A stretch of 64,000 nucleotides of DNA from UHGV virus genome UHGV-0279745; one strand, written 5' to 3'. A program made the translations under genes and the position numbers. The stretch comes from a virus. Position 1 is the stretch's first letter. Every line of letters starts with the position of its first letter. Positions 5,079 to 50,000 of the stretch are shown here, one piece after another. The notes below the pieces were generated by a model. It saw only the letters and a list, made by a program, of their open reading frames with translations. It was not told where the DNA came from and did no database searches.

Positions 5079-5540
5079 ATGAAAACCTTTATCACATTCT
5101 TAATAACCATTTTAACTTTCGGCCTCAATAGCGCACACGCCGCTATCAACAGCTGGGAACAAATACAAAACCCTGGGCAGGCAGTTTACGAAATCGAGGA
5201 CACCGCCGGAAACGGACTGTCTATCAACTGTGACACAGAAACTGCGAATCGCAAATTTTACGGTCGCATGGTTTGGTATTACGGTGAACCCGTAGGTGCA
5301 ACTAACGCGGAAGATAACACGATGGATATTGTCGTAAACGGCAAAACCTATAACATCCCTACCGTGGACGGTAGTGACAAAGCAGAACACGCTTGGGTTG
5401 CTTTCGTTAAAGCTATCGGTAATGCCAAAACTTTCAGTGTGAGTATCAATGGTAACGATGCCGCTAACTTTACCGTAGAAGGCGAACGTCTGTCTGAAAC
5501 TTTCTTCCAAAACTGTGGACACACCCGTCCTAACAAATAA
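5079..5540 (+). CDS. small secreted protein (predicted signal peptide)
   Basis: ORF track; hydrophobic N-terminus ending AHA; Cys residues. Confidence 0.65.
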   Translation: MKTFITFLITILTFGLNSAHAAINSWEQIQNPGQAVYEIEDTAGNGLSINCDTETANRKFYGRMVWYYGEPVGATNAEDNTMDIVVNGKTYNIPTVDGSDKAEHAWVAFVKAIGNAKTFSVSINGNDAANFTVEGERLSETFFQNCGHTRPNK

Positions 5541-5568
5541 CTATTAGTCTTTTTTAGAGTGCGTGAAA

Positions 5569-5955
5569 ATGAATATCAGAACTATACTTTATACCATCAT
5601 TATTTTCTGTGCGGTCGGAATTACTGGCACTTATGCTTTCGGTGATTCAGATGTCCGTTATTACGAACCGGCTCCTGACTCACCGATTATCAACCCGGAT
5701 GAGACGCCTACGTTAATGCGCAGTTTCGGTAAACTACAAGTTTATCGTTTAGTGCGTGGTGAAACGTGTACGGGATTACTCATTGCTGACACCCGTGCAC
5801 AAGTCTACCAACGTCTGACGGATATCGCCTGCGAACAACCAAAAGTCATGTCAGTTAGTATCCATCCGCTATCAGTTGGTAACTATACCGCTGTGGACTT
5901 CTTTCACAACGCCGAATTAATCGGACGTGTTACCTTAAATCGCCCTGCTGAATAA
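5569..5955 (+). CDS. small exported or membrane protein
   Basis: ORF track (5563 GTG alternative start); hydrophobic N-terminal segment. Confidence 0.5.
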   Translation: MNIRTILYTIIIFCAVGITGTYAFGDSDVRYYEPAPDSPIINPDETPTLMRSFGKLQVYRLVRGETCTGLLIADTRAQVYQRLTDIACEQPKVMSVSIHPLSVGNYTAVDFFHNAELIGRVTLNRPAE

Positions 5956-5973
5956 TCTAAAGGAGTAGTTATA

Positions 5974-6459
5974 ATGAAACGTTTACACACATTGATGTTC
6001 TTTCTGGTTTTCTTGTTTATCGGTGTCACGCCAACTGTAGATGCGGCCTCCGTAGACGAATTGCTTACCTGCGATGGAAACGCTTGGGAAGGTCAGCCAA
6101 ATGCGTGCCCAAACATCAACGACTTGTACGATACCGATAAGTCGTTTAAAGCCGTTGTTGATAAAACATTAGACCCTGTGGGACTGGATGGTATGTTCGG
6201 CTCTAAAGGTTACATGGATGGCCCTGGTGGTAACATGTATCCGGTAAACATCAACAACAAAATCTGGATTGAAAGTGGCGGTTGTAAAGCTAACGCTTGT
6301 GGTTGGGAATACATCGTAACGCTATACAACCCACACACCAAGAAACTCGTCGGCTATTACTACAACATCGACCCCGGTTATCTGATTTGGTTCGGTGATA
6401 TCGGTGTTGCCGAATTCGCTTACCTGGTTAAGAAATACGTAGAACAATCTAAATACTAA
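5974..6459 (+). CDS. small secreted cysteine-containing protein
   Basis: ORF track; signal peptide ending VDA; strong RBS ctaaaggag; multiple Cys. Confidence 0.65.
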   Translation: MKRLHTLMFFLVFLFIGVTPTVDAASVDELLTCDGNAWEGQPNACPNINDLYDTDKSFKAVVDKTLDPVGLDGMFGSKGYMDGPGGNMYPVNINNKIWIESGGCKANACGWEYIVTLYNPHTKKLVGYYYNIDPGYLIWFGDIGVAEFAYLVKKYVEQSKY

Positions 6460-6470
6460 GGACTTTTATC

Positions 6471-6881
6471 ATGAAAACTATCATCAATACTCTTCTCATT
6501 GCAATGGCTGTTCTGTTCTCTGTCAACGCTACAGCAAAAACAATACAGTTGCCAGACAATATTAAGTACGTCAATAGTACCGATGATTTCTATTGTACGG
6601 AAATTGACGGGTTGTACTGCCAGGCGAAAAGCCTGTTTAAATACAAAGGTAGCAGATACGTATTCATCGTTGAGCAAGGTGGTGCCTGGTGCTACGACAG
6701 CCCAATGTCCGTACTCAACCTCGAAACGTGGAAGGCTCAGCGTCTCGAATACAACGACAAACGTCTGTGCTCTGGTAATAACAAACCATTCTTCGAAGTC
6801 GTAGATGGTGTGCCAATGGTAGGGATATTAGACACTTCGGAAAAACCTATCGTTGTAGCTATGGATAAACTTAAAATTTAA
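6471..6881 (+). CDS. small secreted cysteine-containing protein
   Basis: ORF track; signal peptide ending ATA; 5 Cys. Confidence 0.65.
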   Translation: MKTIINTLLIAMAVLFSVNATAKTIQLPDNIKYVNSTDDFYCTEIDGLYCQAKSLFKYKGSRYVFIVEQGGAWCYDSPMSVLNLETWKAQRLEYNDKRLCSGNNKPFFEVVDGVPMVGILDTSEKPIVVAMDKLKI

Positions 6882-6891
6882 GGAGTAACTC

Positions 6892-7281
6892 ATGCGTCTC
6901 GTCTGCGTTTTAGCATTCTTCTTCTCCCTGAGTGTAGCAGCATCTACTCAAGTTAACGATTTACTGCTAACCCCAAACAACAATACCGATTACCAGTACA
7001 ATCCTCCGGGGTTTGAAGTTTGTGAAGTCGGTGAAACAATCTGCCAAGAAGTCGGCGCAGACGGGCGCTATATTCTGGTAAAAGCTGATGGTGGCACAAT
7101 GTGTCCCGCAGGTTATTACTTTCTGCTCGATTCCGTCGCAAGAGAGGTTCTTCCTATCACCACGAAAACGTGCGACCCTACCGTTGTCTTAACTCTCGCT
7201 AAAAGCAAATCTCGCGACCGTTATCTGATCGTTATCGAAGAACGGGGCAAGATGGCTGGTGCTATCGAATTAGATCATTGA
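6892..7281 (+). CDS. small secreted cysteine-containing protein
   Basis: ORF track; signal peptide ending AAS; 4 Cys. Confidence 0.65.
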   Translation: MRLVCVLAFFFSLSVAASTQVNDLLLTPNNNTDYQYNPPGFEVCEVGETICQEVGADGRYILVKADGGTMCPAGYYFLLDSVAREVLPITTKTCDPTVVLTLAKSKSRDRYLIVIEERGKMAGAIELDH

Positions 7282-7880: not shown

Positions 7881-8489
7881 ATGAACGAAATTACATTAGT
7901 TCGTTTTCTTGAAGCGATGCAAAATGCAGAGCGCTTTTCGCATACGCCTTTATTCATTGACTTAATGGAAGAAGAAGTAGAGGGATTCCTGGCATACCCT
8001 CGCTTACGGGAATATTTTAAACGTAAAACACCGACTGCTTACGAAAAGTTGGTTTACGCGCTTGAGAACAGTACAACATTGTTAACGTCACCTTTTAAGG
8101 CGTTGGAGGCTTTAGACCCGGCTGGTACCACAAGTATCCCACAACGTGTCGTGTTCTACTATATCGACCACGATCGAATCAAAGCCGATGTTGTTAACTG
8201 GATCTCTGAAAACGCAGTTCCTGAAACACGCACTTTTAATCTCTGTCCTGTAGAAGAAGGGTGGAAGGTCGGTAGCCACTATTCTTACCCGTACCAATCC
8301 ATTAAATCGCCGTTTTTATACCCGGTTTATCTGGATGACGTTACACCTGGAAATTGTATCCCGGTAACAAATCTGATCTGTACATTGACGATGGAAGTCT
8401 TAGCCACAAAGGCGGGACAGGTTTGGGTAGAAAACACGAAGAACGTCGATTATTGGACTTCAATGGGTTATCACCTGTACACCAAATAA
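7881..8489 (+). CDS. hypothetical protein
   Basis: ORF track; RBS aaaggaaaga. Confidence 0.65.
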   Translation: MNEITLVRFLEAMQNAERFSHTPLFIDLMEEEVEGFLAYPRLREYFKRKTPTAYEKLVYALENSTTLLTSPFKALEALDPAGTTSIPQRVVFYYIDHDRIKADVVNWISENAVPETRTFNLCPVEEGWKVGSHYSYPYQSIKSPFLYPVYLDDVTPGNCIPVTNLICTLTMEVLATKAGQVWVENTKNVDYWTSMGYHLYTK

Positions 8490-8492
8490 CGT

Positions 8493-8540
8493 TTGGGAGA
8501 ACCTTCGGGTTCTCCCTTTCTTTATTTTTTTTTCTTTTTA
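8493..8540 (+). terminator. intrinsic terminator
   Basis: gggagaacc-ttcg-ggttctccc hairpin plus long T-run. Confidence 0.7.
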
Positions 8541-8569
8541 CACCACACTCCGTCTTTATGGAGGTGGGT

Positions 8570-11074
8570 ATGCTAAAAGTTGAACGGATTATACTCAAAG
8601 GTTTTACGGGGATGGGATTACATGAAATTGAAACCTTCGATTTCACTATCCAGTCTCCGACAACAATTATCCTGGGTGGGAACGGCTGCGGGAAAACCAG
8701 TCTACTGTCTGTGTTCCTACCCTTAGCACCGGCTAAAACCGAATTCAGGGACGGCGGTTCTTACACAAACTACTGTTTAGTTGGCGATCAACGCTATCGT
8801 TTCAAAGTTGCCCGTAAAGGCAACTCTTTGGTTTGCGATATTGAGAACCTGACCACGGGGGCAAAGATCGTCGAGCAAGGTAATGCGAAAGTCTACAACT
8901 CCCGTGTTGAAGAAATCACAGGTATTACAAAAGAGATTAAAGAATTATTAAATGGTGAGGTGTTGTTAACCGATGCGGGAACCGAATTACGCCGCAAATG
9001 GTTTTACCGTTTAAGTACCTCTGATCTCACTTACGCGTTAGGGTTTTATCAACGTTTACGTAAAAACCTTACTGCCTTAAATGGGGGTATTGAAATCACC
9101 AGCCGTAAGATCGCCGAATTACGGACGCGTGTTATTGAGAACGAGGAAGAACGGCAGCAGTTAGCGACGAGATTAAAAGGTTTGGAATCGGATTTACGTG
9201 AACTGAACCGAGAAATCGAACAGTTACCAGGATTAAATCGTGCCGTCACCATCGAAACAATCCAAGCGTTATTAAACAGCTTGGGTCCAACCATCGACGC
9301 AATATTACAACATCGTGGTGGATTGCCTACTGATGAACAGATACTGGCCGCGCGACAAAACGAAGCGACGGCCCGCGAAGCCGTCGTGTCTACTGAAACA
9401 GAGGTATCGATGTTGAATAAAGACTTGTCGCTACTGATGGATGAGTCGACACGACAAGACTACCTGATGCGGAATCACGAAGGTCTCAAGAATACACTGG
9501 CACGTTTACGTGAGTTACTTACCAAATGGGACACCGAGCATCTCTTTCCGGGTTTATTTAACGACAACATCAATTTAGACCAACTTCGTGCGGCTACCGA
9601 CGCGCGTGTTTGGGGGCAACGGTTAGGAACAACACTGGACGCAATTCATTCAACCGAAAAACTTAATGTTTTGGAAGAACGGCTTCTGGTGATGGATCAA
9701 AAAACCGCAGGGTTGCGGGATAGACTCCAGCGAGTGGAGAACGTTTTACAGAATTTAAATCACGAACGTAATCACTACTTAGAAACAGCGGAAGTGGATT
9801 GCCCGCAGTGTCGGTTTAAGTTCCGTCCTGGCGTTACGCGTTCTTTACCTGAACTTGAGTCTTCGATTCGCGGACAACAACAGCAGCGCACGGAACTGCA
9901 AACGCAGTTAGAGACTCTATTACGCGATCGTGTTGAGTTAGAATCCGATGTAACTTATATGCGGCAGGTTCGTGAGATTGTACTGACGTATTCAAAGGAC
10001 CCGGTATTGAGCATGTTCTTTAAGCGTTTGCAAGAACGTAACGTTTTCACAGAATCACGTGAACAGTTCGGGAGTCTATGCGCAGCGTTTGACAGTGAGT
10101 TGTACTCTGCTATTGAGTACCATGAAACCCGTCAACGGTTAGTGAAGGCGGAAAAAGAATGGCAGGATGCCGTGGCGGCCGTTGGTAACGTCGATGGTGC
10201 TTTACAACAGAAAATTGCTTTCCAACAGTCACGATTAGGTAAAGCCACAGAGATGCTCTCAATGCGTCGTAGAGAGTACGAACTGGCTAACACGACACTT
10301 ACCTATCTGGTGAATGTTAAACGTGCTGTAGATGATTTCAGTGCGTTATTCGAACGGTTAGAGAGTGATGTTAAGGTTACGTTGACAAATACGGTCGTCG
10401 AGGAACTCTTACGTGCACGAGAAGGGAAGCTGGATGCTTTTACAACCGCACGCGAACGTTATCGTCAGATGGAAAATGAATTGAATCAGCTCAACAGTTT
10501 GGAACGCGAACTTGCTGACTTACAAGCCCAGCAATTCAATAACAAACTGATGATTCAAGCCTTCTCTCCAGAAAAGGGTGTACTTAGAAAGTATTTTTAC
10601 AACGCTATCGTTAGAATCACAGAGTTAATGACGCGTTATATCGAACAGGTCTGGACGTACCCCATGCGCGTTATGCCTTGTGACCTCACTGACGGCGATT
10701 TGGATTATACTTTTCCTGTCCAGCTAAAAACGCATCCTGAGCCTGTTCCTGACGTGCGTAAAGGGTCTAAGGCGCAGCGTGCGATATTTAATCTGATGTT
10801 CAGGCTGACTGCGTACAAAGCGCTGAAGTTGCATCAGTTTCCGTTGCTTTTGGATGAGCCTTCGGAAGGCATGGATGAGGAGCACCGTAACAACCTGGTC
10901 GGTTTTATTAAAACGTTAGCAAACTCGGGAGAATTTTCCCAACTGTTGGTAGTCTCCCACGAAGCCGAGGTTCATTCTAAACTTAATGAAGCATCGTACT
11001 GTGTCATCGAACCGGAAGGGGTGACATTGCCTGCGGTGTATAACGAAGGAGTAAAAATTGTTTATGCAAACTGA
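8570..11074 (+). CDS. SbcC/Rad50-like recombination ATPase
   Basis: Start moved to ATG 8570 (RBS GGAGGTGGG, downstream of terminator); Walker A GGNGCGKTS, long coiled-coil middle, CPQC zinc hook, C-terminal LLDEPSEGMD. Confidence 0.7.
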   Translation: MLKVERIILKGFTGMGLHEIETFDFTIQSPTTIILGGNGCGKTSLLSVFLPLAPAKTEFRDGGSYTNYCLVGDQRYRFKVARKGNSLVCDIENLTTGAKIVEQGNAKVYNSRVEEITGITKEIKELLNGEVLLTDAGTELRRKWFYRLSTSDLTYALGFYQRLRKNLTALNGGIEITSRKIAELRTRVIENEEERQQLATRLKGLESDLRELNREIEQLPGLNRAVTIETIQALLNSLGPTIDAILQHRGGLPTDEQILAARQNEATAREAVVSTETEVSMLNKDLSLLMDESTRQDYLMRNHEGLKNTLARLRELLTKWDTEHLFPGLFNDNINLDQLRAATDARVWGQRLGTTLDAIHSTEKLNVLEERLLVMDQKTAGLRDRLQRVENVLQNLNHERNHYLETAEVDCPQCRFKFRPGVTRSLPELESSIRGQQQQRTELQTQLETLLRDRVELESDVTYMRQVREIVLTYSKDPVLSMFFKRLQERNVFTESREQFGSLCAAFDSELYSAIEYHETRQRLVKAEKEWQDAVAAVGNVDGALQQKIAFQQSRLGKATEMLSMRRREYELANTTLTYLVNVKRAVDDFSALFERLESDVKVTLTNTVVEELLRAREGKLDAFTTARERYRQMENELNQLNSLERELADLQAQQFNNKLMIQAFSPEKGVLRKYFYNAIVRITELMTRYIEQVWTYPMRVMPCDLTDGDLDYTFPVQLKTHPEPVPDVRKGSKAQRAIFNLMFRLTAYKALKLHQFPLLLDEPSEGMDEEHRNNLVGFIKTLANSGEFSQLLVVSHEAEVHSKLNEASYCVIEPEGVTLPAVYNEGVKIVYAN

Positions 11075-11243
11075 TTGGTTCCGTCGTATTGTGGATGCGG
11101 TAGGGTTTGGCTTCATGTCCATTTTAGCGGTTCTTTATGTCATGTTTTGTGTGGTGATGATTTTATGGGTAGTTTCATCTTATCTGATTAAACTATCGTG
11201 GGGTTCAATTTGGCGTCAACGCGAATGCGAATGGCGGAATTAG
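11064..11243 (+). CDS. small membrane protein (59 aa), translationally coupled to the SbcC-like gene
   Basis: ATG at 11064 with GAAGGAG RBS inside the 3' end of the upstream gene; one hydrophobic helix. Confidence 0.5.
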   Translation: MQTDWFRRIVDAVGFGFMSILAVLYVMFCVVMILWVVSSYLIKLSWGSIWRQRECEWRN

Positions 11244-11253
11244 GAGAGGGAAT

Positions 11254-11352
11254 ATGGTTGTAGGGGTTCTGTTAACACTTGGCTCGTTGTGGTTAATTGG
11301 TAAAGGTTTAAACTGGCTGATTAAACGTCACCGTTGGGCGTTCGAAGATTAA
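11254..11352 (+). CDS. tiny membrane protein (32 aa)
   Basis: GGAGAGGG RBS then ATG; MVVGVLLTLGSLWLIGKG... single TM helix; not in ORF track. Confidence 0.3.
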   Translation: MVVGVLLTLGSLWLIGKGLNWLIKRHRWAFED

Positions 11353-11409
11353 CCACCCAAATAATCCAGAAGATACCCTCCGGTGTGAGGGTATTGACAG
11401 GAGCAGAAA

Positions 11410-11538
11410 ATGACCACGATAAACGCTACGAATGTAGCGATATCCGCACTATACGACGCGGAACTTTCATGGGGTGGATTAATAATCACCACAGCCATAT
11501 TAGCCGCTGCGGCTTTCGTCATCGCGCGTTGGTTTTAA
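11410..11538 (+). CDS. tiny membrane protein (42 aa)
   Basis: CAGGAG RBS then ATG; hydrophobic C-terminal helix; not in ORF track. Confidence 0.3.
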   Translation: MTTINATNVAISALYDAELSWGGLIITTAILAAAAFVIARWF

Positions 11539-11569
11539 TTTTACTTTTTTGCGTCTCTAAGGTTTGCAA

Positions 11570-12013
11570 ATGGAAATTTATTTGTTGAACGCATCTTCTA
11601 AAGTCGGTGAGCGACAAGCTGCCGATTTACTCAAACTACACTACCGTTACTTAGACCACCAGGCCACGTTACTGAAAATCAAAATGTCGGTGCCGAAGTT
11701 AAATGCGCGACAGCTGATCGAAGGTAACTGCATAGTTCTGGTGTATCAGGATGATGTCGCGGTAGGATACTGTAGTTATCGGAATCGTAACGGCTCACTT
11801 AAGATACGTTCGGTATACGTGCTCCCAGACCATCGTCAACGGGGTGTAATGAAAGAGATTTTCAAAGCAATTGCAGCTGATGAAGTTTTCGGCGAGATTG
11901 TTACTGGCATGTATGCGAAATGTAAAGAAGCAAAAGAGTATTTCATCCGACGCGGCTATCAGGCGGTTTACTCACGCGATCGTGAGTGGGTCGATTTTAG
12001 CAAAACATTCTAA
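11570..12013 (+). CDS. GNAT-family N-acetyltransferase (putative)
   Basis: ATG at 11570; GNAT motif A-like VLPDHRQRGVMKEIF. Confidence 0.55.
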   Translation: MEIYLLNASSKVGERQAADLLKLHYRYLDHQATLLKIKMSVPKLNARQLIEGNCIVLVYQDDVAVGYCSYRNRNGSLKIRSVYVLPDHRQRGVMKEIFKAIAADEVFGEIVTGMYAKCKEAKEYFIRRGYQAVYSRDREWVDFSKTF

Positions 12014-12079: not shown

Positions 12080-12325
12080 ATGTTAAAATCGTACGGAGTG
12101 GGTGGTTTGGATACGAGTATTTGTTGGAAAGAATACGAACGTGCGAAAGCGTTCTTACAGCATCCCAATGTGGGGACAATAGGTAAGGTCTGTTTCGGCA
12201 AACCTTCACTGACGGCTTGTATCCAAGGGGCTTTAGGGACGTTGCCACCCGAAACACATTTCGAGCCTGAGGAGAATATGAATGTTCACAGAGAACCCAT
12301 CAATTTACGGCATACCGTTGAATGA
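12080..12325 (+). CDS. hypothetical protein
   Basis: ORF track; RBS caggagagc; overlaps next gene by 44 nt. Confidence 0.45.
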   Translation: MLKSYGVGGLDTSICWKEYERAKAFLQHPNVGTIGKVCFGKPSLTACIQGALGTLPPETHFEPEENMNVHREPINLRHTVE

Positions 12326-12650: not shown

Positions 12651-12737
12651 TGGGTAAAACATATATCGCTATACTTGTCGAGCTATCAATCGGCGGTACA
12701 CGTTTTAATACTACACATCAACTCCGGGCGTTTCGTT

Positions 12738-13235
12738 ATGTTAACGGTACGTAAAGAATCTGAAATTGGTAACGATCTTTTTAATGCGCCCGAAGACTAT
12801 AAAGTCGTTACCATTAATTGCGTAGGAGCGATGGGTCGCGGTATTGCACTCGCGTGTCGTGAACGCTACCCCAACCTTTACCAGGATTATCGTAAGCGGT
12901 GTCGTGAAAACGAAATTAAGATTGGAAACGTTTACGTTTACTCTGACGAAAAGTGTATCTTGCTCCCCACGAAAACCCATTGGCGCTTAAAGTCCCAGGT
13001 TTCTTATGTTACTGCGGGCATTACCGCACTAGCGGATTGTGCTGAGGATCTGGATACCAGCGTTGCTATCCCTCCACTGGGAATGGCAAACGGGTGGTTA
13101 GATTCCTGGGAAAGACAAGAAATCTTTTTGTGGCTTTACAAAAAACTTGAATCAAGGAGACAACACTACACGTTATACTTACCTGATAAGTTGTACCAAG
13201 AAGCAGAGTCATTAATTCCAAACTCTTTTAAATAG
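12738..13235 (+). CDS. macro-domain-like protein (tentative; ADP-ribose binding/processing fold)
   Basis: ATG 12738 preferred over TTG 12675; motif VTINCVGAMGRGIALA resembles the macro-domain glycine-rich loop; assignment from motif only. Confidence 0.4.
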   Translation: MLTVRKESEIGNDLFNAPEDYKVVTINCVGAMGRGIALACRERYPNLYQDYRKRCRENEIKIGNVYVYSDEKCILLPTKTHWRLKSQVSYVTAGITALADCAEDLDTSVAIPPLGMANGWLDSWERQEIFLWLYKKLESRRQHYTLYLPDKLYQEAESLIPNSFK

Positions 13236-13253
13236 ATATTATCATTAGGGCAC
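13234..13253 (+). promoter_or_regulatory. candidate promoter-like element, variant class (agatattatcattagggcac)
   Basis: Shares the AGATAT..TTATC core with two other intergenic sites and resembles the early motif. Confidence 0.25.
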
Positions 13254-13335
13254 ACAACAAAGGAGTATTAGCTGTCCGCGCCGTCATTTCGTCTTACGGA
13301 ATACGGAAATGTATAAATCCAACTGGAGAAACAAA

Positions 13336-14034
13336 ATGTTTCGTATCTTCTTTCTTTTACTGGTAACACTTTTCGCGTTTAACGCACAGGCGTCAACGTC
13401 AACGCCACATTCTAAGCATCAGCGTGAGTTTGCACAAATCCAACATCGGTTCGAAAAAGTCAGCCCGTTAATTGTGGAAATCTCACGAAAGCAGGGCGTT
13501 GATCCCAAGCTGATGATTACGCTGATTTATCGTGAATCGCGTTTTGATCCCAAGGCTTACAACAAAAGCTCACGAGCACATAGCCTGGTACAAATGCTTC
13601 CAAGTACCAAACGTAATCTGCTAAAGCTTTATGGAAAAGAATTAGGTCTTAGTCAGAACGCCGATTTGTATAATCCGCGCAACGCTGTTTTGCTGGCTAC
13701 CGCGTATGTTAAACATCTTGAGAAGGGGTTAACCAAACGACTCAAACGCAAGCCCACCATGGCTGAAATTGCGTTAGCTTACCACTGGGGTGAAAGTGGC
13801 GCTCACACGCGAATCAAAAGCAAATCTCGAGCAGCACAACGAGAAATGGCAGGCTTTATGAAAGACGCCGCGTTCTATAGCGCGAAAATCGATGTGCCTG
13901 TTGTTGTGGGCTCGGCCCCACGTCAGCTTGCGTTTGCGAAGAAAACACCACGTCAGATTCAACTGGCGGAAGTTAGTAGAATTTGGGATACGATAAACAC
14001 GAGTTTTCCAATCAATAGAGGAGTTACCCTTTGA
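13336..14034 (+). CDS. secreted lytic transglycosylase (SLT domain)
   Basis: ATG 13336 with GGAGA RBS; signal peptide MFRIFFLLLVTLFAFNAQA; SLT motif ESRFDPKAYNKSSRAHSLVQMLPST. Confidence 0.6.
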   Translation: MFRIFFLLLVTLFAFNAQASTSTPHSKHQREFAQIQHRFEKVSPLIVEISRKQGVDPKLMITLIYRESRFDPKAYNKSSRAHSLVQMLPSTKRNLLKLYGKELGLSQNADLYNPRNAVLLATAYVKHLEKGLTKRLKRKPTMAEIALAYHWGESGAHTRIKSKSRAAQREMAGFMKDAAFYSAKIDVPVVVGSAPRQLAFAKKTPRQIQLAEVSRIWDTINTSFPINRGVTL

Positions 14035-14540
14035 GCATCGTAGTAACCGATTGGTATAAAGGCATTACAAAAGCCGCACAATTGACCGCGAAAGACGTTT
14101 ACAGTATCGTCCGAAGCAGTATCGAAGACGAGATTAAGTCGGATGAAGAATTCGCTGAGAAACACGAATTTTACGATGCTTTACCCACAGCATTCGGCGA
14201 CGACGAAGAAGAAGGTTTAGAGTTTGACTGGAACGTCAACCTTGCCTTACTGTGGATTTGTGGTTTACGGCCAACGGTAAAAGAAACCGAAGAAGGAAAA
14301 GTCTTGCTTTGGAATTTTACCGGGCAGTATAACCGTAATTTAGTCTTTAAACAGGCGTATATGGACGCTACTGTAGAACTTCAAAATCTACTGCTTGGCG
14401 AAAACACATACTGCCAACGCAGTTTCTTAACGATTCTGGAAAAACTTGTGTCGACACACAAAGTCTGGCGTAAAGAAGACGCCCCGGAACATATGTTCAT
14501 TTTAGAGTACGCTGTCATTCCAAATCAGCCGTTCTTCTAA
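14031..14540 (+). CDS. hypothetical protein
   Basis: ORF track; TTG start overlapping upstream stop, AGGAG 7 nt upstream. Confidence 0.5.
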   Translation: MSIVVTDWYKGITKAAQLTAKDVYSIVRSSIEDEIKSDEEFAEKHEFYDALPTAFGDDEEEGLEFDWNVNLALLWICGLRPTVKETEEGKVLLWNFTGQYNRNLVFKQAYMDATVELQNLLLGENTYCQRSFLTILEKLVSTHKVWRKEDAPEHMFILEYAVIPNQPFF

Positions 14541-14544
14541 TCCC

Positions 14545-14586
14545 TACCCCTTACCCTATACGGTGTAAGGGGTACTTTTATTTTCA
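14545..14586 (+). terminator. intrinsic terminator
   Basis: ccccttac/gtaagggg hairpin plus T-run. Confidence 0.6.
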
Positions 14587-14606
14587 TTCCCTAAAGGAGC
14601 AGAGTT

Positions 14607-15086
14607 ATGATAAAATTCATTTGGCGTTATCCAACGCGTTTTTGGTTTGTGGTACTTGAACTGTGTATGGTTCTTGTAGCGGTTACTTTTGTCGAAGCGC
14701 CCGCCTCGCAGTTGGCCATTTTCTGCCTTTTCGTGACTGTCCCTGTATGGGTGATTGCGAAGGCTATTAAGTTCGTCATGGTGTGTTGGGCGAATTATAC
14801 CTGTCCGTATAAGCCTAAACAAATCATGAAATGGCTGATGTATATTGAAGAACGTTTACCGGCGCAACATAAATTACTGGGCTGGTCGTCAATGTTGGAT
14901 ATTGCACTAGAAACCAATGCAAAGTTCCCCGGTGCGAAAAACCCTTATTTGTTGATGGCGGTAATTGTTGCACAACAAAAACTGGTGGGTGACCGTTGGT
15001 TGCCAGAAGAAGCGAAAGCGTATATCCGTAAACATCCAAAAGCTTTTTACTCGGTAGGACAATGGCGTAACTTGCCATTATTTTAA
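14607..15086 (+). CDS. membrane protein (multiple predicted TM helices)
   Basis: ORF track; RBS cctaaaggagc; hydrophobic N-terminal half. Confidence 0.65.
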   Translation: MIKFIWRYPTRFWFVVLELCMVLVAVTFVEAPASQLAIFCLFVTVPVWVIAKAIKFVMVCWANYTCPYKPKQIMKWLMYIEERLPAQHKLLGWSSMLDIALETNAKFPGAKNPYLLMAVIVAQQKLVGDRWLPEEAKAYIRKHPKAFYSVGQWRNLPLF

Positions 15087-16076: not shown

Positions 16077-16083
16077 TTTAAAT

Positions 16084-16689: not shown

Positions 16690-16700
16690 AATAAAAGCTA

Positions 16701-18757: not shown

Positions 18758-19261
18758 ATGGGTTCATTTTTTAAAGTGCTTCCGTTCTTCCTTCAGATGT
18801 TAATGGAAGCATTTAAACCAGGAGAAGGAGAAAACGTATCAAGAGCAAGCAAGATAATGACTTTAATCATCACGATCTTGTTGTCGTATTCTGGCTTCGT
18901 CTCCTACGCCTATGTACAACAGTTTCACGCGCTCGTTGCAGTGCAGTCTCATGACACTTATATGTCGCAGTCTTACCAAGAGATGAAACAAGATCGAGAT
19001 AAACTAAAAGAAGATAATGGGAAGTTATACGACAGGCTCTTCGTTTGCCTCGGCCAGAAACCGCCATATGAAAGCACGTTTAATTCATCGAAAGCGAGCG
19101 GTACGGCGAAGGATCTGTCTTCGACAAAACCAGAAACTCCTGTTAATCCAGCTTCAACACCAGAACAACGTAAAGAGGCTTCGGCGAGACCTGTTGGCAA
19201 TTTAAATGCGAACAGTTTTCGACAGGAGATCATAAAGACGCTAACGTCTTCTAAGGAGTGA
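18758..19261 (+). CDS. membrane-anchored hypothetical protein
   Basis: ORF track; RBS GAGGTGA; N-terminal hydrophobic segments. Confidence 0.55.
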   Translation: MGSFFKVLPFFLQMLMEAFKPGEGENVSRASKIMTLIITILLSYSGFVSYAYVQQFHALVAVQSHDTYMSQSYQEMKQDRDKLKEDNGKLYDRLFVCLGQKPPYESTFNSSKASGTAKDLSSTKPETPVNPASTPEQRKEASARPVGNLNANSFRQEIIKTLTSSKE

Positions 19262-19264: not shown

Positions 19265-19720
19265 ATGAAAATGCTGTTATTCATCATGATGGTGTTCGTG
19301 GGGTTGGTGAGTAATAGCTACGGCGACGAAGTTAAACGTCCAGCTTATAGGCCACTGGAACTTCCTCCTACACCACCAATAATGGTGAATTGGAAAATTG
19401 ACAATAATGCAATGCGTGAGTATGTTGCGGATGTCAACACCTATGCTTACTACGTTTATGTCTACACCCGAAATTTAAACCAACAAGCCGTTAAACGTGG
19501 CTGGAGCCCACCAATGCTGGCTCCACTTTGTGAGCGTTATGAGTTACCGAAGTTACATGTTGTACCTGAACGCTTATCTCTTGACGAAAGCTCTTTAACG
19601 CCCCAGGAGATTAGCCGTGACCTATCGCGTAAACTCAATAATTTGTTGTGGAATTACCGTTCCGACCGTCAGACACTACTCGATTCGTATAACCAATACT
19701 TGACATCGTGTTTGTACTGA
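19265..19720 (+). CDS. secreted hypothetical protein
   Basis: ATG 19265 with TAAGGAG RBS; N-terminal signal-like MKMLLFIMMVFVGLVSNSYG. Confidence 0.55.
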   Translation: MKMLLFIMMVFVGLVSNSYGDEVKRPAYRPLELPPTPPIMVNWKIDNNAMREYVADVNTYAYYVYVYTRNLNQQAVKRGWSPPMLAPLCERYELPKLHVVPERLSLDESSLTPQEISRDLSRKLNNLLWNYRSDRQTLLDSYNQYLTSCLY

Positions 19721-44049: not shown

Positions 44050-47000
44050 TTACGCCGATTTACGACTAACGTCGAGTTGTGGCGCTGGTTGGGTTATTGA
44101 CACGTTACGTGACGCCGAACCCGGAGCGGTTGACGCAGGGTTAGCCGGTCCGTTTTGCATAGCCTGTGGTCGCTGACGAAGAATTGTTACAATCTCTTTC
44201 AGGTAGCCCGCAGACTCTTTTGCAACCGCCAGCTGCTGTACGCTGATCGGATCACCGCTGTTCACTGTAGAGCCGGTCTGTGCATCGGAAGTTACTGTTG
44301 GTGCAGGGCGGACTGATTTCTCCATCTGCTGTCTAGCACCTTCTTTTACTTTAGCAACATCCTCTTCGGCCAGGCCGTCAGCACGAGCATTTTGACCCAC
44401 CGTATCTACAACAACTGACGCATCACTCGGTGTCACGTCGCCGCCGGGGCTCGGCACCGCCGGACCACCGCCCGTCGCAGCTTTAATGTCATCGGCCCCC
44501 ATTGCACCTTTATCTGCTAAGGCTGTGTCACGATTCGCCTCGTTCGCAGCTGGCAGGTTATCTGCCGGGCCTGTGATGGACGGATCGTTAGCAGCGCCCG
44601 CAGCGATGGCTGGGGATGACGGCATTGGCGTTACGCCAGTCGTCAAGTCTTTCACCGATGCCTGATTGCCCGCAATTGCGTTTGTTCCTACTGCACCAAT
44701 CTTACCACCCATGATGCTGAGCACTTCATCCAAACTACGCAATTTTCCATTCTTGTAGAAAATTGTGCTGTTTGCCGCGATTTGATCGGCCGATGCACCA
44801 CGCGATGACGGACCGTTCGGATCACGCTTCCATTCTTGCAGGAATTTCTTACCGCCACCTTGTCCTAAGAAGTGGTAGAGGTAAACTGCCGCACCGGGAG
44901 GATCGATGCCACCTAAATCCTTTCTGGCTTTCTCGATATTGTCACGAATATGGCGGACACCAAGCAGGGCATTCGCCCACGGGTCATACTGGTCGGTTTG
45001 CGGGATACCGTAACGTCTAGCGTAAGCTTTCATCTGCTCACTCCAGGTACCGTTGATGAACTGGAACAAGCCAGCTGCAGAACTTCCTTTAGCTTTGATG
45101 CCGTATCTAAGTCCTGATTCTGCTTGTGCCATTCCCAGCGCTAACGCTGGAGGAACACCCATCATCTTCGCTACGTCTATAATCAGTGCTGCGACCGCAT
45201 TCAGGTTAGGCTTCAATCCGTCACCCAACGTTGAAATTGGATACTTAGCCGCTAACGTTTTATAATCACCGTCTTGCATCTCGCCAAGCTTCACACCGAA
45301 GTTACCGGTACTAAACGCGGCGTAATTCTTAGCCCCCATCTGACCATAAGCACCAGCCAAATCGTTTGGCGTGCCGTAATTACCACCGTCATTCGCTGCC
45401 GGTTGAAGCAGATCGCGATAAGAGGAGGAAGTATTCATCTGTTGCCGAGGTGGTTGGTCCTTCTCGTCATCGGTCAAGAACATCTGAGTCGCACGATCTT
45501 TTCGCTGCCAGTTCACACGGAAACCAGCAGAAGGCGTAGCACGCAGCGTTTTACGTACTGCCAAATCAGCTTCCTTAGACAGTTCTTTCAGGTTCTCTAA
45601 CTCCGTTGCAACTGAACCAGCGTCAGTGTTAGCATCACCCCCTAACGGGTTAAACGGTACCTCCCACACCGATTGGCGAATACCCCCTTTCAGGTTGTAC
45701 GCACCACGCATCATCAGTGCGATTTCATACAAGAACCCGCCTGTAACGCGTAGGTCCATCGGATCGGCAGCAGGGACATAACGTTTCACCCCAACCACGT
45801 ACGTCATGAAGACAGGTAAGAAGCGGTTATAGAACCAGTTCTTGTACCGATCTTCTTTTGGTCCACCAATAGCGTCAGGTGCAATCACTGCAATCGCACG
45901 TTTCCAGTCTCCTTTATACGTACAACTTTTCACATCAGTGTCTTGCAACACTTGACGTTCTAGGAGCGTATAGAGGTTACGGGTTGTTTGAGTAATGCTC
46001 ACCGCACCATAAGCTTTCAACCTTACAGATTCCAAATCACGGAGATCGGTTTCTTTAGGTAAGCTTCTCCAGTCAACTTGAACCTGAACTTGTTCGGTGC
46101 CGTCTTCCCAACCTTCAACCTTTGCAACCTCTTTGTTGCGTTCCGCATCCGCTTGAGCCAACGCTTGGGTCGATTCCGCCACAGAAGCAACTTTGTGTCC
46201 TTCGGCCACGCTGCCCGTAGCATTTACATCCTTACGTTTTTCATCACGACGCATGTTAATCGAACGAAGCACGCGTTCTTGTGCTTCAACGACTTCTTCA
46301 CCTGACAAAAACTCGGCCGGGGTAAACGTTACGAAATCCCACGCTTTAGAGAACCAACCTTGGTTAACCTTGCGGGGGTCTTCTAATGCACGGAATGCAG
46401 GTGCGTCTTTCGACATCTTCATTTTGTTAAAGATGTTCAACATGTCTGCTTTCGACACTTTCGCTGGATTACCGACGTCTGCTAACGCGATATCGTTATC
46501 CATCGATTTCAGTGCCGTAATCCAACGTAAGTAAATAGGCACAAAACGTTGTAGCATAAACGCACTAAACGCCAGCATTTCGCCTTTGTCTTCTACGTTA
46601 GTACCAAACCCTTCGGCCAGTTTCTTCACATCGTCACCAGACAAACCACGCAGCTGCGCTTGACCGTTCTCTGTATAAGAGATATACGGTTTCAAGTTGT
46701 CTTCTAAATAACGTGCTTTTGCACCGTCGTCGGAAGACCATTCATCATGGTCTCTAAAACCGTACTGCGCCAATCGCATGTTATCTAGGTACTGGGCATT
46801 TACACGATCTTTAGTTTTATAATAAAACCACGTTAACCCTGCGCCAGCGGCTACCAAACCGATAATCGGCCAGCCAACCGCAGTTACCACTGCAGATGCA
46901 GCTGTCGCGACAGCACTCACCGCAGGGACAGCCAAACGGGTCACGGCAAACTTACCAACGTTCCACAACGCTTTGCCTGCAAATCCGACCGGCTTGAAGA

Positions 47001-50000
47001 TTCCCCATTTTGCAAGTTTACCTAAGATTGAACCCACTGTGCCTAAAATACTCACGATTGGTCCTACCAACGGCAATCCTTTAAGGAAATCCATTACCCC
47101 ACGTTTACCACCTTTCTTCTCAGCCTCTTTCTTAGCCTTTTCCTCTTCCTTAGAACGCCGACGGCGTCGGAAGAACTGGAAGTAATCGCGTTTTTCATCA
47201 CTGGCAGGCGGCTTATTGCGTTGGCCGAACTTACTGAACATAGTTCTTAACAAACCTTCCGAAGCACCTGCTTTTTCCGCAGAATCACGCATGGTGTTAA
47301 ACCATGACATTTCCTGAAGATTAACCATTCGGTTCAGGCGTTCCAGTAAAGCTGACCCAACGCTACGGGCTTTCTGTTTCCCTTTATTAATCACACGTCC
47401 AGCGCTATCCGTTACGGTGTCTAAGTCTTCTTTTGCCGCATCGATGATACGTGTTTTAGACACCTTGCCTCTTGCGTAGATGTGCTGACGATAAAACTCA
47501 GCAACATCGTCATCGCGTCCTGCTAAACGACTCTCCATTCGATAACGTGTGCCGATATCGTAACGTGGGTCTCGGAAAGTATCGACCATATCGCTTGCAC
47601 GGCCACGGAAACGATCAAACCAACCACGTGCGGCACCGCCCCAACGAGAAAGACGACCACCTACCGCACTGCGATAACGGGACATTCTGTCACGCATCCG
47701 ACCACGCCAATCCCGGAACCCCTGAAAATGTTCACGGAACCCATCACGTATGTCTTTAGCACGTTGGAATAATCCTTTAACTGAGCTGGCTCCCGTATTC
47801 CGTTCCATCTGTTCTGTCCAGGTATCATCTTCTGGTTCACCTGGCAATCTCCGGTTAAGGAGTTTGTAGATACGGATTAAGATGTGGTTAGTTTTACGGC
47901 CGTTCGACCATGAGAACACACTAAACCCACCACCAGAACCCCCTTCCTTACGGTTCTGCCACCAACGTGTCAGAGGGTTATCAGAAGCCAACTCTTTGAG
48001 CTTCTCAAATCCGCGTTTTGCATTGTTCCACAAACGTGCTGGCATTCCCGTTACACGGGAAATCATGCTTTGTAAACGGGTTTTCTCTGCACCCTCTGGA
48101 ACCTCATTTAACCACTCGCGTGCTTTCTCGAACAACGAAGCCGCTTTAGGCGAAATGAAACCCAGAAGTTTCTTCGGTAAAGTCACAGCTTTGTTTACCG
48201 CCGTTCCTGCTTTCCCAGAAATGTACTGGAAAAGCGCTTGAACTTTACCACCTTTGTAGAAACGCAGTTTACCTGCGGCAGCCAAATCAGCAGCAGCTAA
48301 GATTAAATTACCCGCTTCATCGACGATGTCACGTCCCAGTTTAATATCGTCGAGAGTTTTAAGTTGAATCAGCTTCTCAGTTTTCGGGTCAGCCTGGTAA
48401 TATTCCCCAGCTTCTAAACGACTTCCTTGTAATACGACGTTGCCACGTTCATCGTAGATGTCGCGAACGCCTAAAACACCTTTACCGAAAGCTACGGCAG
48501 AATTCCAACCCGTCGATAATGTACCGGTTACTAACCCTTTCAGTCGGCTAAATACGCCGGGACCTTCGGAGGAACCGCCTGAGAATTTCCCACGAATAAA
48601 ACCACCTAATGCTTGTAGGCGATCTTTCCCACGTAGGAACAGATTCTTACCAAACCGTCCTACACCAGAACCGGTATCCCAAAGCACTCCAGCCCAGCGA
48701 CGTAACAAACCTGTCTCGCCTAGTACAATACGTTTGCGCTTACGACGACGTTTACGGCCCGATTCACTCGAACTTTCAGGTTCGTCGCCGTCATCACGAC
48801 TACCGCCTAAACTGGCTAGAAGAATACCTTCCTCATCCATGTTCTTAACGTGTTTGAGGATATCTTGCACGGTGCTAGATTCAGGCTGTTTACGTACGGC
48901 ATCAATCAATCGATCGAACTGTTGTTCCAGCCCGGCGTTCGTATCTGGACGGCTGCTTAAGAGCTCAACAAAGTTGGTAGATTTCTCTCCATAAAGTACC
49001 GCAGCGAGTTGACGGGCGCTTAAACCACGACCGCGACCACCTTTTCCACCACCACGTACGTTGGACAGTTCTTTGTCTTCAAAGCTCGGCTCTGCTCCTG
49101 CACCCATCCGACGCAAGTAATCACCCAACGCAGAACCATTTTGCAGCTTACGTTGAATCTCTTGCTCACGGGTTAACGAACGGCCAGAACGGGTCTTACC
49201 CATCGACAGGTCGTTAAATAGCGTATAGGGATCGTTAATGTCCTTATCGACTTCGAAAATGTCGTTCTTCGCATCGTATTTAAAAATACCGGAATCGCGA
49301 AGTGCGTTCTCGCCGTAAATCACAGACGCAGCATCAACCGTGTCTTGACGTGCACGAATCGTTGACTGAATAGCGGCTATTTTGTTTGAAATCGCATTAC
49401 TCAGTTCATGGTGACCGCCAACCAGTTCCGCAGAACGGGCTTCTAAAACACCCTGAATCGCTTCCACAGCGTTTGCGTTCATGTAACGATACATGTGCAT
49501 CGGGTCTTTCAATAAAGACCCTACATCGAACGCTTTCCCTTCCGAGGCACGAGACTCGATGTAGTCCGCTAACGCCTGACGTGTTTTCCTATCGAGCGTT
49601 TTATCTTTATCGATAAAGTCGACAGTGTCGTTGATGTACGTCTGTAAACGTTTGCGCTGATCGTCATTAGCAACGGCCTTACGTACACGATTACCAATAA
49701 CTTTGCGATCAACCATACCGCGCGTGGTCAGGTCGTATACCTGATCGTGGTGTTCGCCATACCCACGACGAATAGATTTGTTAATCTCGGACAGTAACGT
49801 CGGAATAACTTCGGTGATACTAAGGTAAGCTTTACGATCGAATTTCGCTGCGGCAGAAAGAGATTCCGCAGAGCGATCGTCTAATGCTAAGGTTTCGCGA
49901 CGTAGCGGGTTAACTAGCCCCAATTCGTGCATTAGTCGAAACAGATCAGCTAACGGACCGCTTGTTTCTCCCGCTATTGCCGAGTTAGAAATAGACGACA

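Follow-up and report, generated by a model that had tools for sequence, protein, structure and literature searches.

[quoted passage not shown] That cassette was itself defined only in 2026. Lys44 of Oenococcus phage fOg44 carries a typical signal peptide and is exported by Sec, the processed enzyme accumulates outside the membrane, and its activity is released by a holin-driven loss of proton motive force (PMC6116005). Sec-dependent export in Gram-negative hosts is known from the SAR endolysins, among them P1 Lyz and R21 of phage 21, which are often accompanied by a two-TMD pinholin. Thomas et al. matched gp198 of phage SPN3US to phiKZ gp144. Here we analyse an orthologue of gp198, referred to as the SLT protein, in a 64,000-nucleotide stretch of the virus genome UHGV-0279745 (the window).

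Gene and phage group

The window phage, a relative of SPN3US with Salmonella and E. coli as hosts, falls in the proposed 'Bapsvirus' group of nucleus-forming jumbo phages. A megablast search of positions 12000-16000 against a phage collection gave no match, and the phage was identified through protein searches. The gene and its flanks comprise the following features.

13336..14034, plus strand: 232-aa gene combining signal peptide and SLT domain (open reading frame, profile matches, public gene calls)
13325..13328, plus strand: RBS GGAG, 7 nt before the ATG, read from the sequence
13846..14031, plus strand: conserved basic C-terminal extension, residues 171-232, from conserved alignment columns

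The start at 13336 was also chosen by independent gene callers in public contigs. An alternative in-frame ATG lies upstream at 13309 and its use would only extend the positively charged n-region; all orthologues start with M-F/L-R, which favours 13336 as the true start. The precursor has a mass of 26.4 kDa and the predicted mature form, of 213 residues, a mass of 24.1 kDa and a pI of 10.4; a count of the sequence finds no cysteine at all. The C-terminal extension contains the motifs DAAFYSAK, QLAFAK and E..IW in the orthologue alignment and is poorly modelled by AF2, with pLDDT values of 32-57 past residue 183.

The gene is orthologous to SPN3US gp198 and CR5_178, both of which are annotated as 'putative endolysin', and to gp219 of Erwinia phage ChrisDB; identity to the SLT protein is 50-57% for SPN3US and ChrisDB and 36% for CR5. 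In these three phages, as in the window phage, a small signal peptide + SLT gene follows genes for an SMC protein and a macro-domain protein. Dozens of genomes already carry annotated members of this family, so our finding refines an annotation and does not describe a new system. Literature searches on gp198, on SPN3US spanins and on signal-peptide endolysins of jumbo phages returned no study of the SLT protein or its orthologues. A possible second small paralogue with signal peptide and SLT domain, P0055 (284 aa, on contigs of ~224 kb), was rejected: it is the orthologue of the CR5/Derbicusvirus lineage, the window does not encode it, and its sole match in an Enterobacter relative is the single SLT gene.

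A scan for sigma-70 promoters found 12 sites against 15.9 in shuffled sequences, that is, no excess; as transcription in these phages relies on polymerases of their own, the scan is uninformative about timing. A pattern of hairpin, T-run and CCTAAAGGAG recurs in upstream regions, and it gives no date for expression of the SLT gene.

Catalytic domain

13471..13845, plus strand: SLT catalytic domain (family 1 lytic transglycosylase, GH23-type), residues 46-170, from PF01464, PDB and Foldseek matches
13534..13539, plus strand: codons of the catalytic Glu67-Ser68 pair (E-S motif), invariant in the orthologue alignment

The Pfam profile PF01464 matches the protein at E=8.2e-15, scoring 54.8 bits where the cut-off is 21.3 and covering profile positions 3-115 of 117, and PHROG 4067 ('transglycosylase') matches at 1.2e-46. 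Sequence matches in the PDB are MltC, phiKZ gp144 and MltE. The E67-S68 pair is invariant in 15 orthologues, and E67 aligns both with the E-S of MltC and with residue 115 of phiKZ gp144, the glutamate that we take, from the gp144 structure paper, to be catalytic. The family motifs of Blackburn and Clarke's classification are reportedly G-L-M-Q and A-Y-N-x-G; here we observe the variants S-L-V-Q-M, with S83, V85, Q86 and M87 invariant, and A-Y-H-W-G, with Y149 and G152 invariant. The AF2 model has a mean pLDDT of 71.8, with the core above 85, and its top Foldseek matches are gp144, MltE, MltC and Slt, each at a probability of 1.0 with modest TM-scores of 0.36-0.47; phiKZ gp144 is the best structural match. 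Profile match, E-S motif, downstream motifs and similarity of fold thus all place the protein in lytic transglycosylase family 1, and it is predicted to be enzymatically active.

Predicted signal peptide

13336..13392, plus strand: predicted Sec / signal peptidase I signal, residues 1-19 (MFR / IFFLLLVTLFAF / NAQA), a pattern seen in 15 orthologues

The predicted signal consists of an n-region with R3, an h-region of 12 uncharged residues (I4-F15) and a c-region (N16-A19), with predicted cleavage after A19, between A-Q-A and S. The 11-residue scoring core, I4-A14, has a mean Kyte-Doolittle value of 3.0. In the alignment, all 15 orthologues have A, V, S or T at -3, A at -1 and S at +1; this n/h/c pattern, with [AVST]-x-A followed by S, is kept across 50-97% identity while the sequence of the h-region itself drifts. 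Signal peptides were scored with a simple home-made heuristic, which was positive for 7 of the 75 window genes and for 0.4% of shuffled proteins. Signal-like N-termini recur in the wider family, where 39 of 52 small representatives have one. In the AF2 model, residues 2-20 form a helix that is followed by a low-confidence linker. Being free of cysteine, the protein has no lipobox, unlike lipoprotein lytic transglycosylases of the MltC / EmtA type. We therefore regard Sec export with a cleavable signal, joined to a lytic-transglycosylase fold, as well supported in silico, and the protein is probably exported and cleaved in the infected cell.

Neighbouring genes and the search for lysis partners

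11058..11538, plus strand: three single-TMD proteins of 61, 32 and 42 aa, alternative holin/antiholin candidates
14031..14540, plus strand: translationally coupled partner gene, 169 aa, acidic, lacking signal and TMD; the start codon TTG shares bases with the SLT stop (TTGA)
14607..15086, plus strand: membrane protein of 159 aa whose two TMDs span ~residues 12-30 and 36-54; a candidate holin on the basis of position and topology only
18758..19261, plus strand: i-spanin-like protein, 167 aa, by architecture only (N-terminal TMD, helical segment, Pro/Ser/Thr-rich tail)
19265..19720, plus strand: o-spanin-like protein, 151 aa, with signal peptide and Pro-rich start

The coupled partner gene has a GGAG 7 nt upstream of its TTG; its product, a conserved cytoplasmic protein, corresponds to the orthologues SPN3US gp199 and CR5_179. 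The sequence-only reading had stated that no holin is adjacent and that small membrane proteins lie 2 kb upstream. The upstream proteins are indeed there: the single-TMD genes occupy 11058-11243, 11254-11352 and 11410-11538, downstream of an SMC/SbcC-like gene, and have counterparts in SPN3US and ChrisDB. The statement about the holin needs qualifying, as the two-TMD candidate, recognised by topology only, begins 572 nt downstream of the SLT gene; its N-terminus is positively charged and its soluble tail is ~95 aa long. SPN3US (gp200) and ChrisDB (gp221) also have TMD proteins at this place, with only 17-25% identity. NCBIfam, Pfam and PHROGs were uninformative for the neighbouring genes, with no match to a known holin or spanin family.

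In SPN3US, ChrisDB, CR5 and the window phage, a TMD protein and a lipoprotein with the architecture of a spanin pair are encoded 3-5 kb downstream of the SLT gene; in the window the distance is 4.7 kb. The i-spanin-like protein is orthologous to SPN3US gp204 and CR5_183. Orthologues of the o-spanin-like protein carry lipoboxes (LLTGC in SPN3US, LVAC in ChrisDB and MLTGC in CR5), whereas the window copy has no N-terminal cysteine and hence no lipobox, and a strict scan of the window for lipoprotein signals found no o-spanin candidate. A strong terminator (19725-19755) lies 3' of this gene. When the window was searched by tblastn with phiKZ gp139-gp143, nothing significant was found; gp141, gp141.1, gp142 and gp143 gave nothing below E 0.38. 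An hhalign alignment of the i-spanin-like family with phiKZ gp141 had a probability of 0.1, indicating no relationship.

Other wall-degrading enzymes

Two further candidate wall enzymes, both non-virion, are encoded by relatives outside the region covered by the window. One is a muramidase with GH108 and PG_binding_3 domains and no signal peptide. RefSeq calls it 'endolysin' in Machina, ChrisDB, phiEaH2 and others; its identity to SPN3US gp156 is 62%, and it shares Bapsvirus contigs with the SLT gene. The second, encoded by gene 158 in SPN3US, is M15-like and matches phrog_894 'endolysin'. We thus flag three candidate wall enzymes, SLT, GH108 and M15-like; given the latter two, the SLT protein is not the sole lysin candidate, and either of them could be the true endolysin instead. 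In CR5, the signal peptide + SLT gene is present while a GH108 homologue was not found (best tblastn hit E 0.5), from which it follows that GH108 is not universal in the group and the SLT gene is. We considered CR5 as a case in which the SLT protein is the only lysin candidate, which is weakened by the M15-like gene that CR5 retains.

Proposed role

We hypothesize, with a probability of roughly 0.5, that the SLT protein is an exported, cleaved periplasmic lysin that acts at lysis together with a cytoplasmic endolysin. The host Sec translocon would export the precursor, signal peptidase I would cleave it past Ala19, and a soluble, very basic 24-kDa enzyme would build up in the periplasm of its Salmonella or E. 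coli host during infection, able to cut the MurNAc-GlcNAc bonds of the sacculus via Glu67. Such an exported lysin ('e-endolysin') would get to the wall without holin holes, and may be nearly harmless under an energised membrane; after depolarisation of the cell by a membrane protein (holin) it would help to break down the wall, working with a cytoplasmic GH108 muramidase whose gene lies in another part of the genome, before the spanin-like pair acts. The timing, the gating by proton motive force and the part played in lysis are inferred. In favour of the lysin reading, all members of the group have the gene, it is coupled to a cytoplasmic partner, and it lies near a two-TMD protein and a spanin-like pair.

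The sequence-only reading had placed an SLT motif behind a cleavable-looking signal peptide and had offered two roles, endolysin or peptidoglycan remodelling factor. The motif and signal are borne out by the PF01464 match and the A-x-A followed by S conserved in 15 orthologues, and a Sec-exported transglycosylase stands in silico; the role of endolysin is partly supported, there being other lysin candidates in relatives. That reading had also held detection in virions to speak against it. The SPN3US orthologue gp198 is missing from the virion proteome, as it is not among the 83 proteins found by virion mass spectrometry; its neighbours gp193, gp202 and gp203 are.

A broader reading would make a secreted, signal-peptidase-cleaved transglycosylase the ancestral, conserved lysis enzyme of the enterobacterial nucleus-forming jumbo phages (Seoulvirus, Machinavirus, Derbicusvirus and 'Bapsvirus'). 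The enzyme would be periplasmic through late infection, restrained by the energised membrane only, and might be controlled via the coupled cytoplasmic partner, of a novel fold (the gp199 family). Lysis in the style of Lys44 would then occur in Gram-negative hosts, for which exported endolysins are regarded as SAR endolysins. The Bapsvirus homologue of the o-spanin would have lost its lipid anchor, hinting at a remodelled, perhaps attenuated lysis, which could relate to persistence of the phage in bacterial isolates. We consider this reading rather improbable.

The finding bears on how SPN3US-like jumbo phages lyse their hosts. If the protein is a working lysin, it would document a cleaved, Sec-secreted endolysin in a phage of Gram-negative bacteria and might also be of practical interest, as a very basic muralytic enzyme that is compact and free of cysteine; if it serves as an accessory beside the GH108 muramidase, these phages would target the wall from either side of the membrane.

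Alternative explanations

The SLT protein may instead remodel peptidoglycan without lysing the cell, as a 'space-making' accessory enzyme that makes the sacculus looser or opens it locally during infection, the real endolysin being the GH108 muramidase and/or the M15-like peptidase. Possible purposes are swelling of the cell around the phage nucleus, which is speculation, or an aid to membrane-associated assembly. The canonical endolysin candidates elsewhere in the genomes of relatives fit this explanation, as does the layout of signal peptide and small SLT domain, which is also that of bacterial periplasmic and 'specialised' transglycosylases; outside phages, MltC and MltE/EmtA match best, and most small homologues have signal peptides. 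Furthermore, keeping an active, freely soluble lysin in the periplasm over a long latent period would put the phage at risk, and Tgl of Staphylococcus Kayvirus is reported to be a secreted, transglycosylase-like accessory lysin (PMC7150955). Against this, CR5 keeps the signal peptide + SLT gene though GH108 is missing, the gene is consistently found near the spanin-like pair and not among early genes, and these phages have no known structure that needs an opening in the wall. We judge non-lytic remodelling to be unlikely, though a real possibility.

Another explanation is that the N-terminus is an uncleaved tether, and that the protein is a SAR endolysin, inactive until a pinholin depolarises the membrane and frees it. 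This is the usual mode of exported endolysins in phages of Gram-negative hosts (PMC8879335; PMC6116005), a two-TMD, pinholin-like membrane protein is encoded just 3' of the SLT gene, and the window protein has no charged residue between R3 and H25. However, a typical SAR domain is a long, weakly hydrophobic, Gly/Ala-rich helix, whereas the core here is just 11-12 residues of Leu/Phe/Ile/Val with a Gly/Ala/Ser/Thr fraction of 0.12-0.36, and hydropathy over a 19-residue window is 1.74. Moreover, the site A-x-A followed by S occurs at 17-20 in 15 of 15 orthologues, many of which have Lys at +2. Both helix length and composition on the one hand, and the presence of a signal-peptidase site on the other, therefore point away from SAR membership. 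There is a precedent in T4 RI, whose supposed SAR domain is reported to have proved a cleaved signal peptide (PMC8385771). All told, a SAR endolysin appears very unlikely.

Packaging of the protein in the virion, for digestion of the wall at infection in the manner of phiKZ gp181 or T7 gp16, is suggested by the several PHROG matches of the SLT domain that are tail or internal virion proteins and by phiKZ gp144 itself, which has been modelled in the phiKZ neck structure 9xps. The window, however, already encodes a dedicated tail protein with such a domain.

44050..51174, minus strand: 2374-aa phiKZ gp181-like tail protein (phrog_3201, tblastn)
~44692-45174, minus strand: C-terminal SLT domain of the tail protein, the window's second, virion-associated SLT domain

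SPN3US gp239 is a virion protein by mass spectrometry; gp198 was not detected in purified SPN3US virions, and a cleavable Sec signal would divert the protein from virion assembly in the cytoplasm. We find a virion role hardly credible. Equally hard to credit is a non-functional hydrophobic N-terminus (a miscalled start or a relic leader) on a cytoplasmic, holin-dependent endolysin, given that the start is conserved with the right RBS spacing, that the signal pattern is kept over ~50% sequence divergence, and that the next in-frame Met, M60, precedes the catalytic Glu by only 7 residues and lies 14 residues inside the SLT match (46-170), so that a start there would truncate the catalytic domain.

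Comparison with known systems

E. coli MltC, MltE (EmtA) and Slt70 belong to the same catalytic family and act in the compartment predicted here, the periplasm. MltC and EmtA are lipoproteins, whereas the SLT protein is cysteine-free and phage-encoded, and NCBIfam scores fall far under the equivalog cut-offs (36 against 375 bits and 33 against 233 bits). The layout of a small protein with signal peptide and SLT domain resembles that of the specialised transglycosylases of secretion and conjugation systems. SAR endolysins share Sec-dependent export in a Gram-negative host with our proposal but have an uncleaved long, weakly hydrophobic helix; the SLT protein has a short, strongly hydrophobic core with A-x-A followed by S. 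Tgl of the Staphylococcus phage K group (Kayvirus) is reported to be a secreted, transglycosylase-like accessory lytic enzyme beside a main endolysin (PMC7150955), which parallels the pairing of SLT and GH108; it differs in its Gram-positive host and its IsaA/SceD-like domain family.

Phage phiKZ belongs to the same virus family, and its gp144 has the same SLT fold. Unlike the SLT protein, it lacks a signal peptide, includes a domain that binds peptidoglycan and depends on the class III holin gp142 (PMC12894885). Its cassette partners have no detectable homologue in the window, and gp144 itself is closer to the SLT domain of the window's tail protein (tblastn, 2e-23) than to the small SLT protein (5e-9).

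SPN3US gp198, CR5_178 and ChrisDB gp219 (of Seoulvirus, Derbicusvirus and Machinavirus, respectively), annotated as 'putative endolysin' or 'transglycosylase', have the same layout of signal peptide and SLT domain, the same position past the SMC and macro-domain genes and a gp199-like gene after them. The window protein belongs to a different, recently proposed genus ('Bapsvirus'), and its C-terminus is shorter than in the Machinavirus proteins. The mechanism that we propose for the SLT protein is that of Lys44, which has a Gram-positive host and an unrelated catalytic domain: export by Sec and activation upon membrane depolarisation, demonstrated experimentally for Lys44, would apply here by inference.

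The transglycosylase domain and its reading frame

The SLT gene, named for its lytic transglycosylase domain, was read from the sequence as an open reading frame:

13336..14034, plus strand, SLT gene, 232 codons

A GGAG is present at 13325-13328, seven bases upstream of the ATG, and the 13336 start is also called by gene callers on six public contigs that encode exactly the window protein. Starting instead at an in-frame ATG at 13309 would lengthen the protein by nine residues (MYKSNWRNK). Because every orthologue in our alignment of 15 sequences begins M-F/L-R, the true start is likely to be 13336, not 13309.

The sequence-only reading proposed a Sec-exported soluble lytic transglycosylase. 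The SLT-domain part of this proposal is solid, since profile, sequence and fold matches agree. Pfam SLT (PF01464) matches residues 46-170 (E=8.2e-15; 54.8 bits against a cut-off of 21.3), PHROG 4067 'transglycosylase' matches at 1.2e-46, and the best sequence matches among solved structures are MltC (2.6e-7), the phiKZ endolysin gp144 (about 8e-7) and MltE/EmtA. In the alignments with these structures, Glu67 of the motif Y-R-E-S falls at gp144 residue 115, which we take to be the catalytic glutamate of gp144. An AlphaFold model derived from the 15 orthologues has a mean pLDDT of 71.8, with 85-95 in the catalytic core; its top Foldseek matches in the PDB are gp144, MltE, MltC and Slt. Residues 171-232 form a C-terminal extension that is conserved among the 15 orthologues and is without resolved structure in the model. 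The predicted mature protein has 213 residues, a mass of 24.1 kDa and a pI of 10.4.

A conserved, predicted signal peptide

Residues 1-19 are MFR-IFFLLLVTLFAF-NAQA, followed by Ser20: one positive charge, a strongly hydrophobic core of 12 residues and a polar stretch closing with A-x-A. R3, L9, F15, A19 and S20 never vary among the 15 orthologues (50-97% identity), only A, V, S or T occurs at position 17, and the remaining core residues change yet keep their hydrophobicity. Such a pattern looks like the result of selection to keep a signal peptide, not a folded segment. With a cleavable-looking n/h/c pattern and its A-x-A kept in all 15 orthologues, the predicted signal peptide of the sequence-only reading is upheld, and we infer that it is cleaved. 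As the protein contains neither a twin-arginine motif nor a cysteine, the signal is neither of the Tat type nor a lipoprotein signal. A crude home-made heuristic for signal-like N-termini was positive in 7 of the 75 window genes and in 0.4% of shuffled proteins. We also observed a cluster of predicted secreted proteins, kept in related contigs: five consecutive genes (window 5079..7281) of 128-161 residues, all with signal-peptide-like N-termini.

5079-5540, 5569-5955, 5974-6459, 6471-6881 and 6892-7281, plus strand, genes of the cluster of predicted secreted proteins

Searched by profile, 1.8 billion representative proteins yielded 2198 relatives, only 8 of them with E<=1e-30. The family in its full length, C-terminal extension included, is therefore small. 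The best 150 of the 2198 are giant gp181-like tail proteins (about 2000-2600 residues) and small proteins; 39 of the 52 small proteins of <=320 residues in this subset have a signal-like N-terminus. CR5-like phages have a small gene of this type, 36% identical to the window protein, and in tblastn the CR5-type protein also matches Serratia Moabite-like and Klebsiella Miami-like jumbo phage genes that carry endolysin or transglycosylase annotations (31-32% identity). From this spread, a signal peptide joined to an SLT domain appears to be a common, old design and therefore not a peculiarity of the window phage. Many deposited genomes already carry an annotation for the gene family, and neither of its possible roles is of a new kind; in the literature searched, we found no work noting or testing the signal peptide of the family.

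Phage lineage and gene neighbourhood

No DNA-level match was found in the phage collection. At the protein level, the SLT gene is related to genes annotated 'putative endolysin' or 'transglycosylase' in SPN3US-like phages of Salmonella and in Machinavirus phages of Erwinia (45-57% identity); the orthologue in SPN3US itself is gp198. Hundreds of contigs (222-226 kb), drawn from metagenomes and from assemblies of Salmonella, Shigella, E. coli and Enterobacter, encode the SLT protein in identical or near-identical form. The window phage fits the proposed Chimalliviridae genus 'Bapsvirus', described only in late 2025. Its members, found in bacterial assemblies, are lytic jumbo phages already published as full-length contigs of about 220-226 kb from Salmonella, E. 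coli and Shigella isolates; with Seoulvirus they share synteny but only distant similarity (PMC12768965). Two relatives at 81% nucleotide identity, NZ_CP173450.1 from a human urinary E. coli (98232) and NZ_CP134650.1 from a gull Enterobacter ludwigii, are filed as circular non-mobilizable 'plasmids'.

The window, SPN3US and ChrisDB share the gene order SMC/SbcC-like, small membrane proteins, acetyltransferase, macro-domain, SLT, conserved hypothetical; the three named genes upstream of SLT stand in the same order in SPN3US.

8354..11074, plus strand, SMC/SbcC-like gene; counterpart of SPN3US gp186, which is essential in SPN3US
11564..12013, plus strand, GNAT acetyltransferase
12675..13235, plus strand, macro-domain protein; counterpart of phiKZ gp104
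14607..15086, plus strand, membrane protein of 159 residues: two transmembrane helices plus a soluble tail (about 95 residues)
18758..19261 and 19265..19720, plus strand, spanin-like pair, after two reverse-strand virion genes
16085-16106, 16699-16724 and 19725-19755, strong terminators

The SLT stop codon overlaps the TTG start of a coupled partner gene (TTGA, 14031-14034), with a GGAG seven bases upstream. In SPN3US, ChrisDB and CR5, too, the SLT gene is followed by this partner, an acidic, signal-less protein of 169 residues (phrog_8114 at 8e-76). A hairpin and T-run separate it from the membrane-protein gene, whose slot is occupied in SPN3US (gp200) and ChrisDB (gp221) by proteins with transmembrane helices at 17-25% identity. 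The same slot with low identity is a pattern seen for holins; it proves nothing, and 14607..15086 may be considered a holin candidate.

In the first protein of the spanin-like pair, a transmembrane helix at the N-terminus is accompanied by a helical segment; the second has a signal peptide and a proline-rich start. Because the second carries a clear lipobox in SPN3US (LLTGC), ChrisDB (LVAC) and CR5 (MLTGC), the pair has i-spanin/o-spanin architecture. Neither the window phage nor its 83%-identical sister clade still has the lipobox (FVGLVSNSYG and ILCVGLVSNSYG): a short N-terminal deletion took the cysteine or the lipobox and left an ordinary signal peptide. We found no naming of this conserved pair as spanins in the literature and annotations searched. 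The holin, regulator and spanins of the phiKZ lysis cassette (PMC12894885) have no detectable homologue in the window.

A recurring intergenic layout, consisting of a GC-rich hairpin, a T-run and a near-identical (A)CCTAAAGGAG(T/A)ATTAAA directly before the start codon, was seen for example at 7282-7347, 14541-14606, 16077-16137, 36039-36101 and 62000-62128. Such a layout may serve this phage as terminator, promoter or leader, and ribosome-binding site in one. AAAGGAGTATTAG also occurs 70 nt upstream of the SLT gene, but no start codon goes with that copy.

Lysis or remodelling

The sequence-only reading left endolysin and peptidoglycan remodelling factor undivided. We favour the former, an exported lysin, with a probability of about 0.5. 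Its main rival, a real but clearly smaller possibility, is that another enzyme is the real endolysin and the SLT protein an accessory, non-lytic remodelling enzyme, with a parallel in the secreted Kayvirus protein Tgl of Staphylococcus phages (PMC7150955). Candidates for that other enzyme exist in relatives: full annotation of the E. coli 'plasmid' reveals three consecutive genes about 40 kb from the SLT gene, outside the window.

GH108 plus PG_binding_3 protein, 196 residues, no signal peptide (Pfam 1.4e-21 and 1.6e-16; phrog_315 'endolysin')
DUF1353 protein, encoded between the two candidates
M15-like protein, 171 residues (phrog_894 'endolysin' 8e-28; Pfam Peptidase_M15_3 only 0.02)

This module (NZ_CP173450.1 33848..35713; SPN3US gp156-gp158) lies amid structural genes, with a lipoprotein gene nearby on the opposite strand. 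The rival assigns lysis to the GH108 muramidase, the M15-like peptidase or both. The GH108 protein is 62% identical to gp156, and RefSeq calls it 'endolysin' in Machina, ChrisDB, phiEaH2, Asesino and other phages. Its nearly equal similarity to endolysins of the Vequintavirinae Cronobacter phages CR3 and CR9 (66%) and of other jumbo phages (65%) suggests horizontal exchange among unrelated phages that share hosts. Its gene is not encoded in the 64-kb window, and shares Bapsvirus contigs with the SLT gene (e.g. DUU91_10820 and DUU91_11000 on a 223,987-bp contig). Against the rival, the whole CR5 genome contains the SLT gene (CR5_178), the partner gene and the spanin-like pair but no GH108 (best tblastn E 0.5). 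CR5 does keep the M15-like gene, along with the DUF1353 gene. Among the three candidates, the SLT gene thus has the widest conservation in this group, yet it is never the only one.

Tethering by a signal-anchor-release (SAR) domain is improbable: the hydrophobic core lacks the length of such a domain and contains too much Leu/Phe/Ile/Val (Gly/Ala/Ser/Thr fraction 0.12-0.36), and a SAR domain should be without a conserved peptidase site, which is predicted here.

A virion enzyme is very improbable. The SPN3US virion proteome lists gp193, gp202 and gp203, whereas gp198, our proxy for the SLT protein, is absent (Table S4, PMC5105663), in agreement with the non-virion enzyme of the sequence-only reading; gp156 is likewise absent. 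Table S1 of the same paper pairs gp198 with the phiKZ endolysin. The window also has a dedicated virion enzyme:

44050..51174, minus strand, 2374-residue gp181-like tail protein with a C-terminal SLT domain

The counterpart in SPN3US, gp239, belongs to the virion, and the SLT domain of the window's tail protein is closer to gp144 (tblastn 2e-23, 36% identity) than is the small SLT protein (5e-9). A 2026 cryo-EM 'neck structure of phage phiKZ' includes gp144 (PDB 9xps chain S), so that endolysin is also a virion component, whereas gp198 was not detected in SPN3US virions.

A non-functional leader is hardly credible, given the hydrophobic pattern and A-x-A conserved in the 15 orthologues.

Proposed mechanism and known systems

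For the exported lysin, Sec would likely export the precursor, to be cut by signal peptidase I. The mature protein would then, judging from its family, likely be a periplasmic lytic transglycosylase acting via Glu67. Conservation, the family link to the proven phiKZ endolysin, the non-virion gp198 and the nearness of membrane and spanin-like genes give about even odds that it contributes to host lysis. A wider scheme, in which enterobacterial nucleus-forming phages share a Lys44-style secreted endolysin with a coupled regulator of novel fold, and this lineage has lost the spanin lipid anchor, is doubtful.

If the lysis role holds, the protein may resemble Lys44, the endolysin of Oenococcus phage fOg44, in being processed, waiting outside the membrane and being released by a holin; Lys44 is freed when the holin collapses the proton motive force (PMC6116005). 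Since phages of Gram-negative hosts are expected to export endolysins by SAR domains, not cleaved signals (PMC8879335), confirmation of such a lysin would be of modest novelty.
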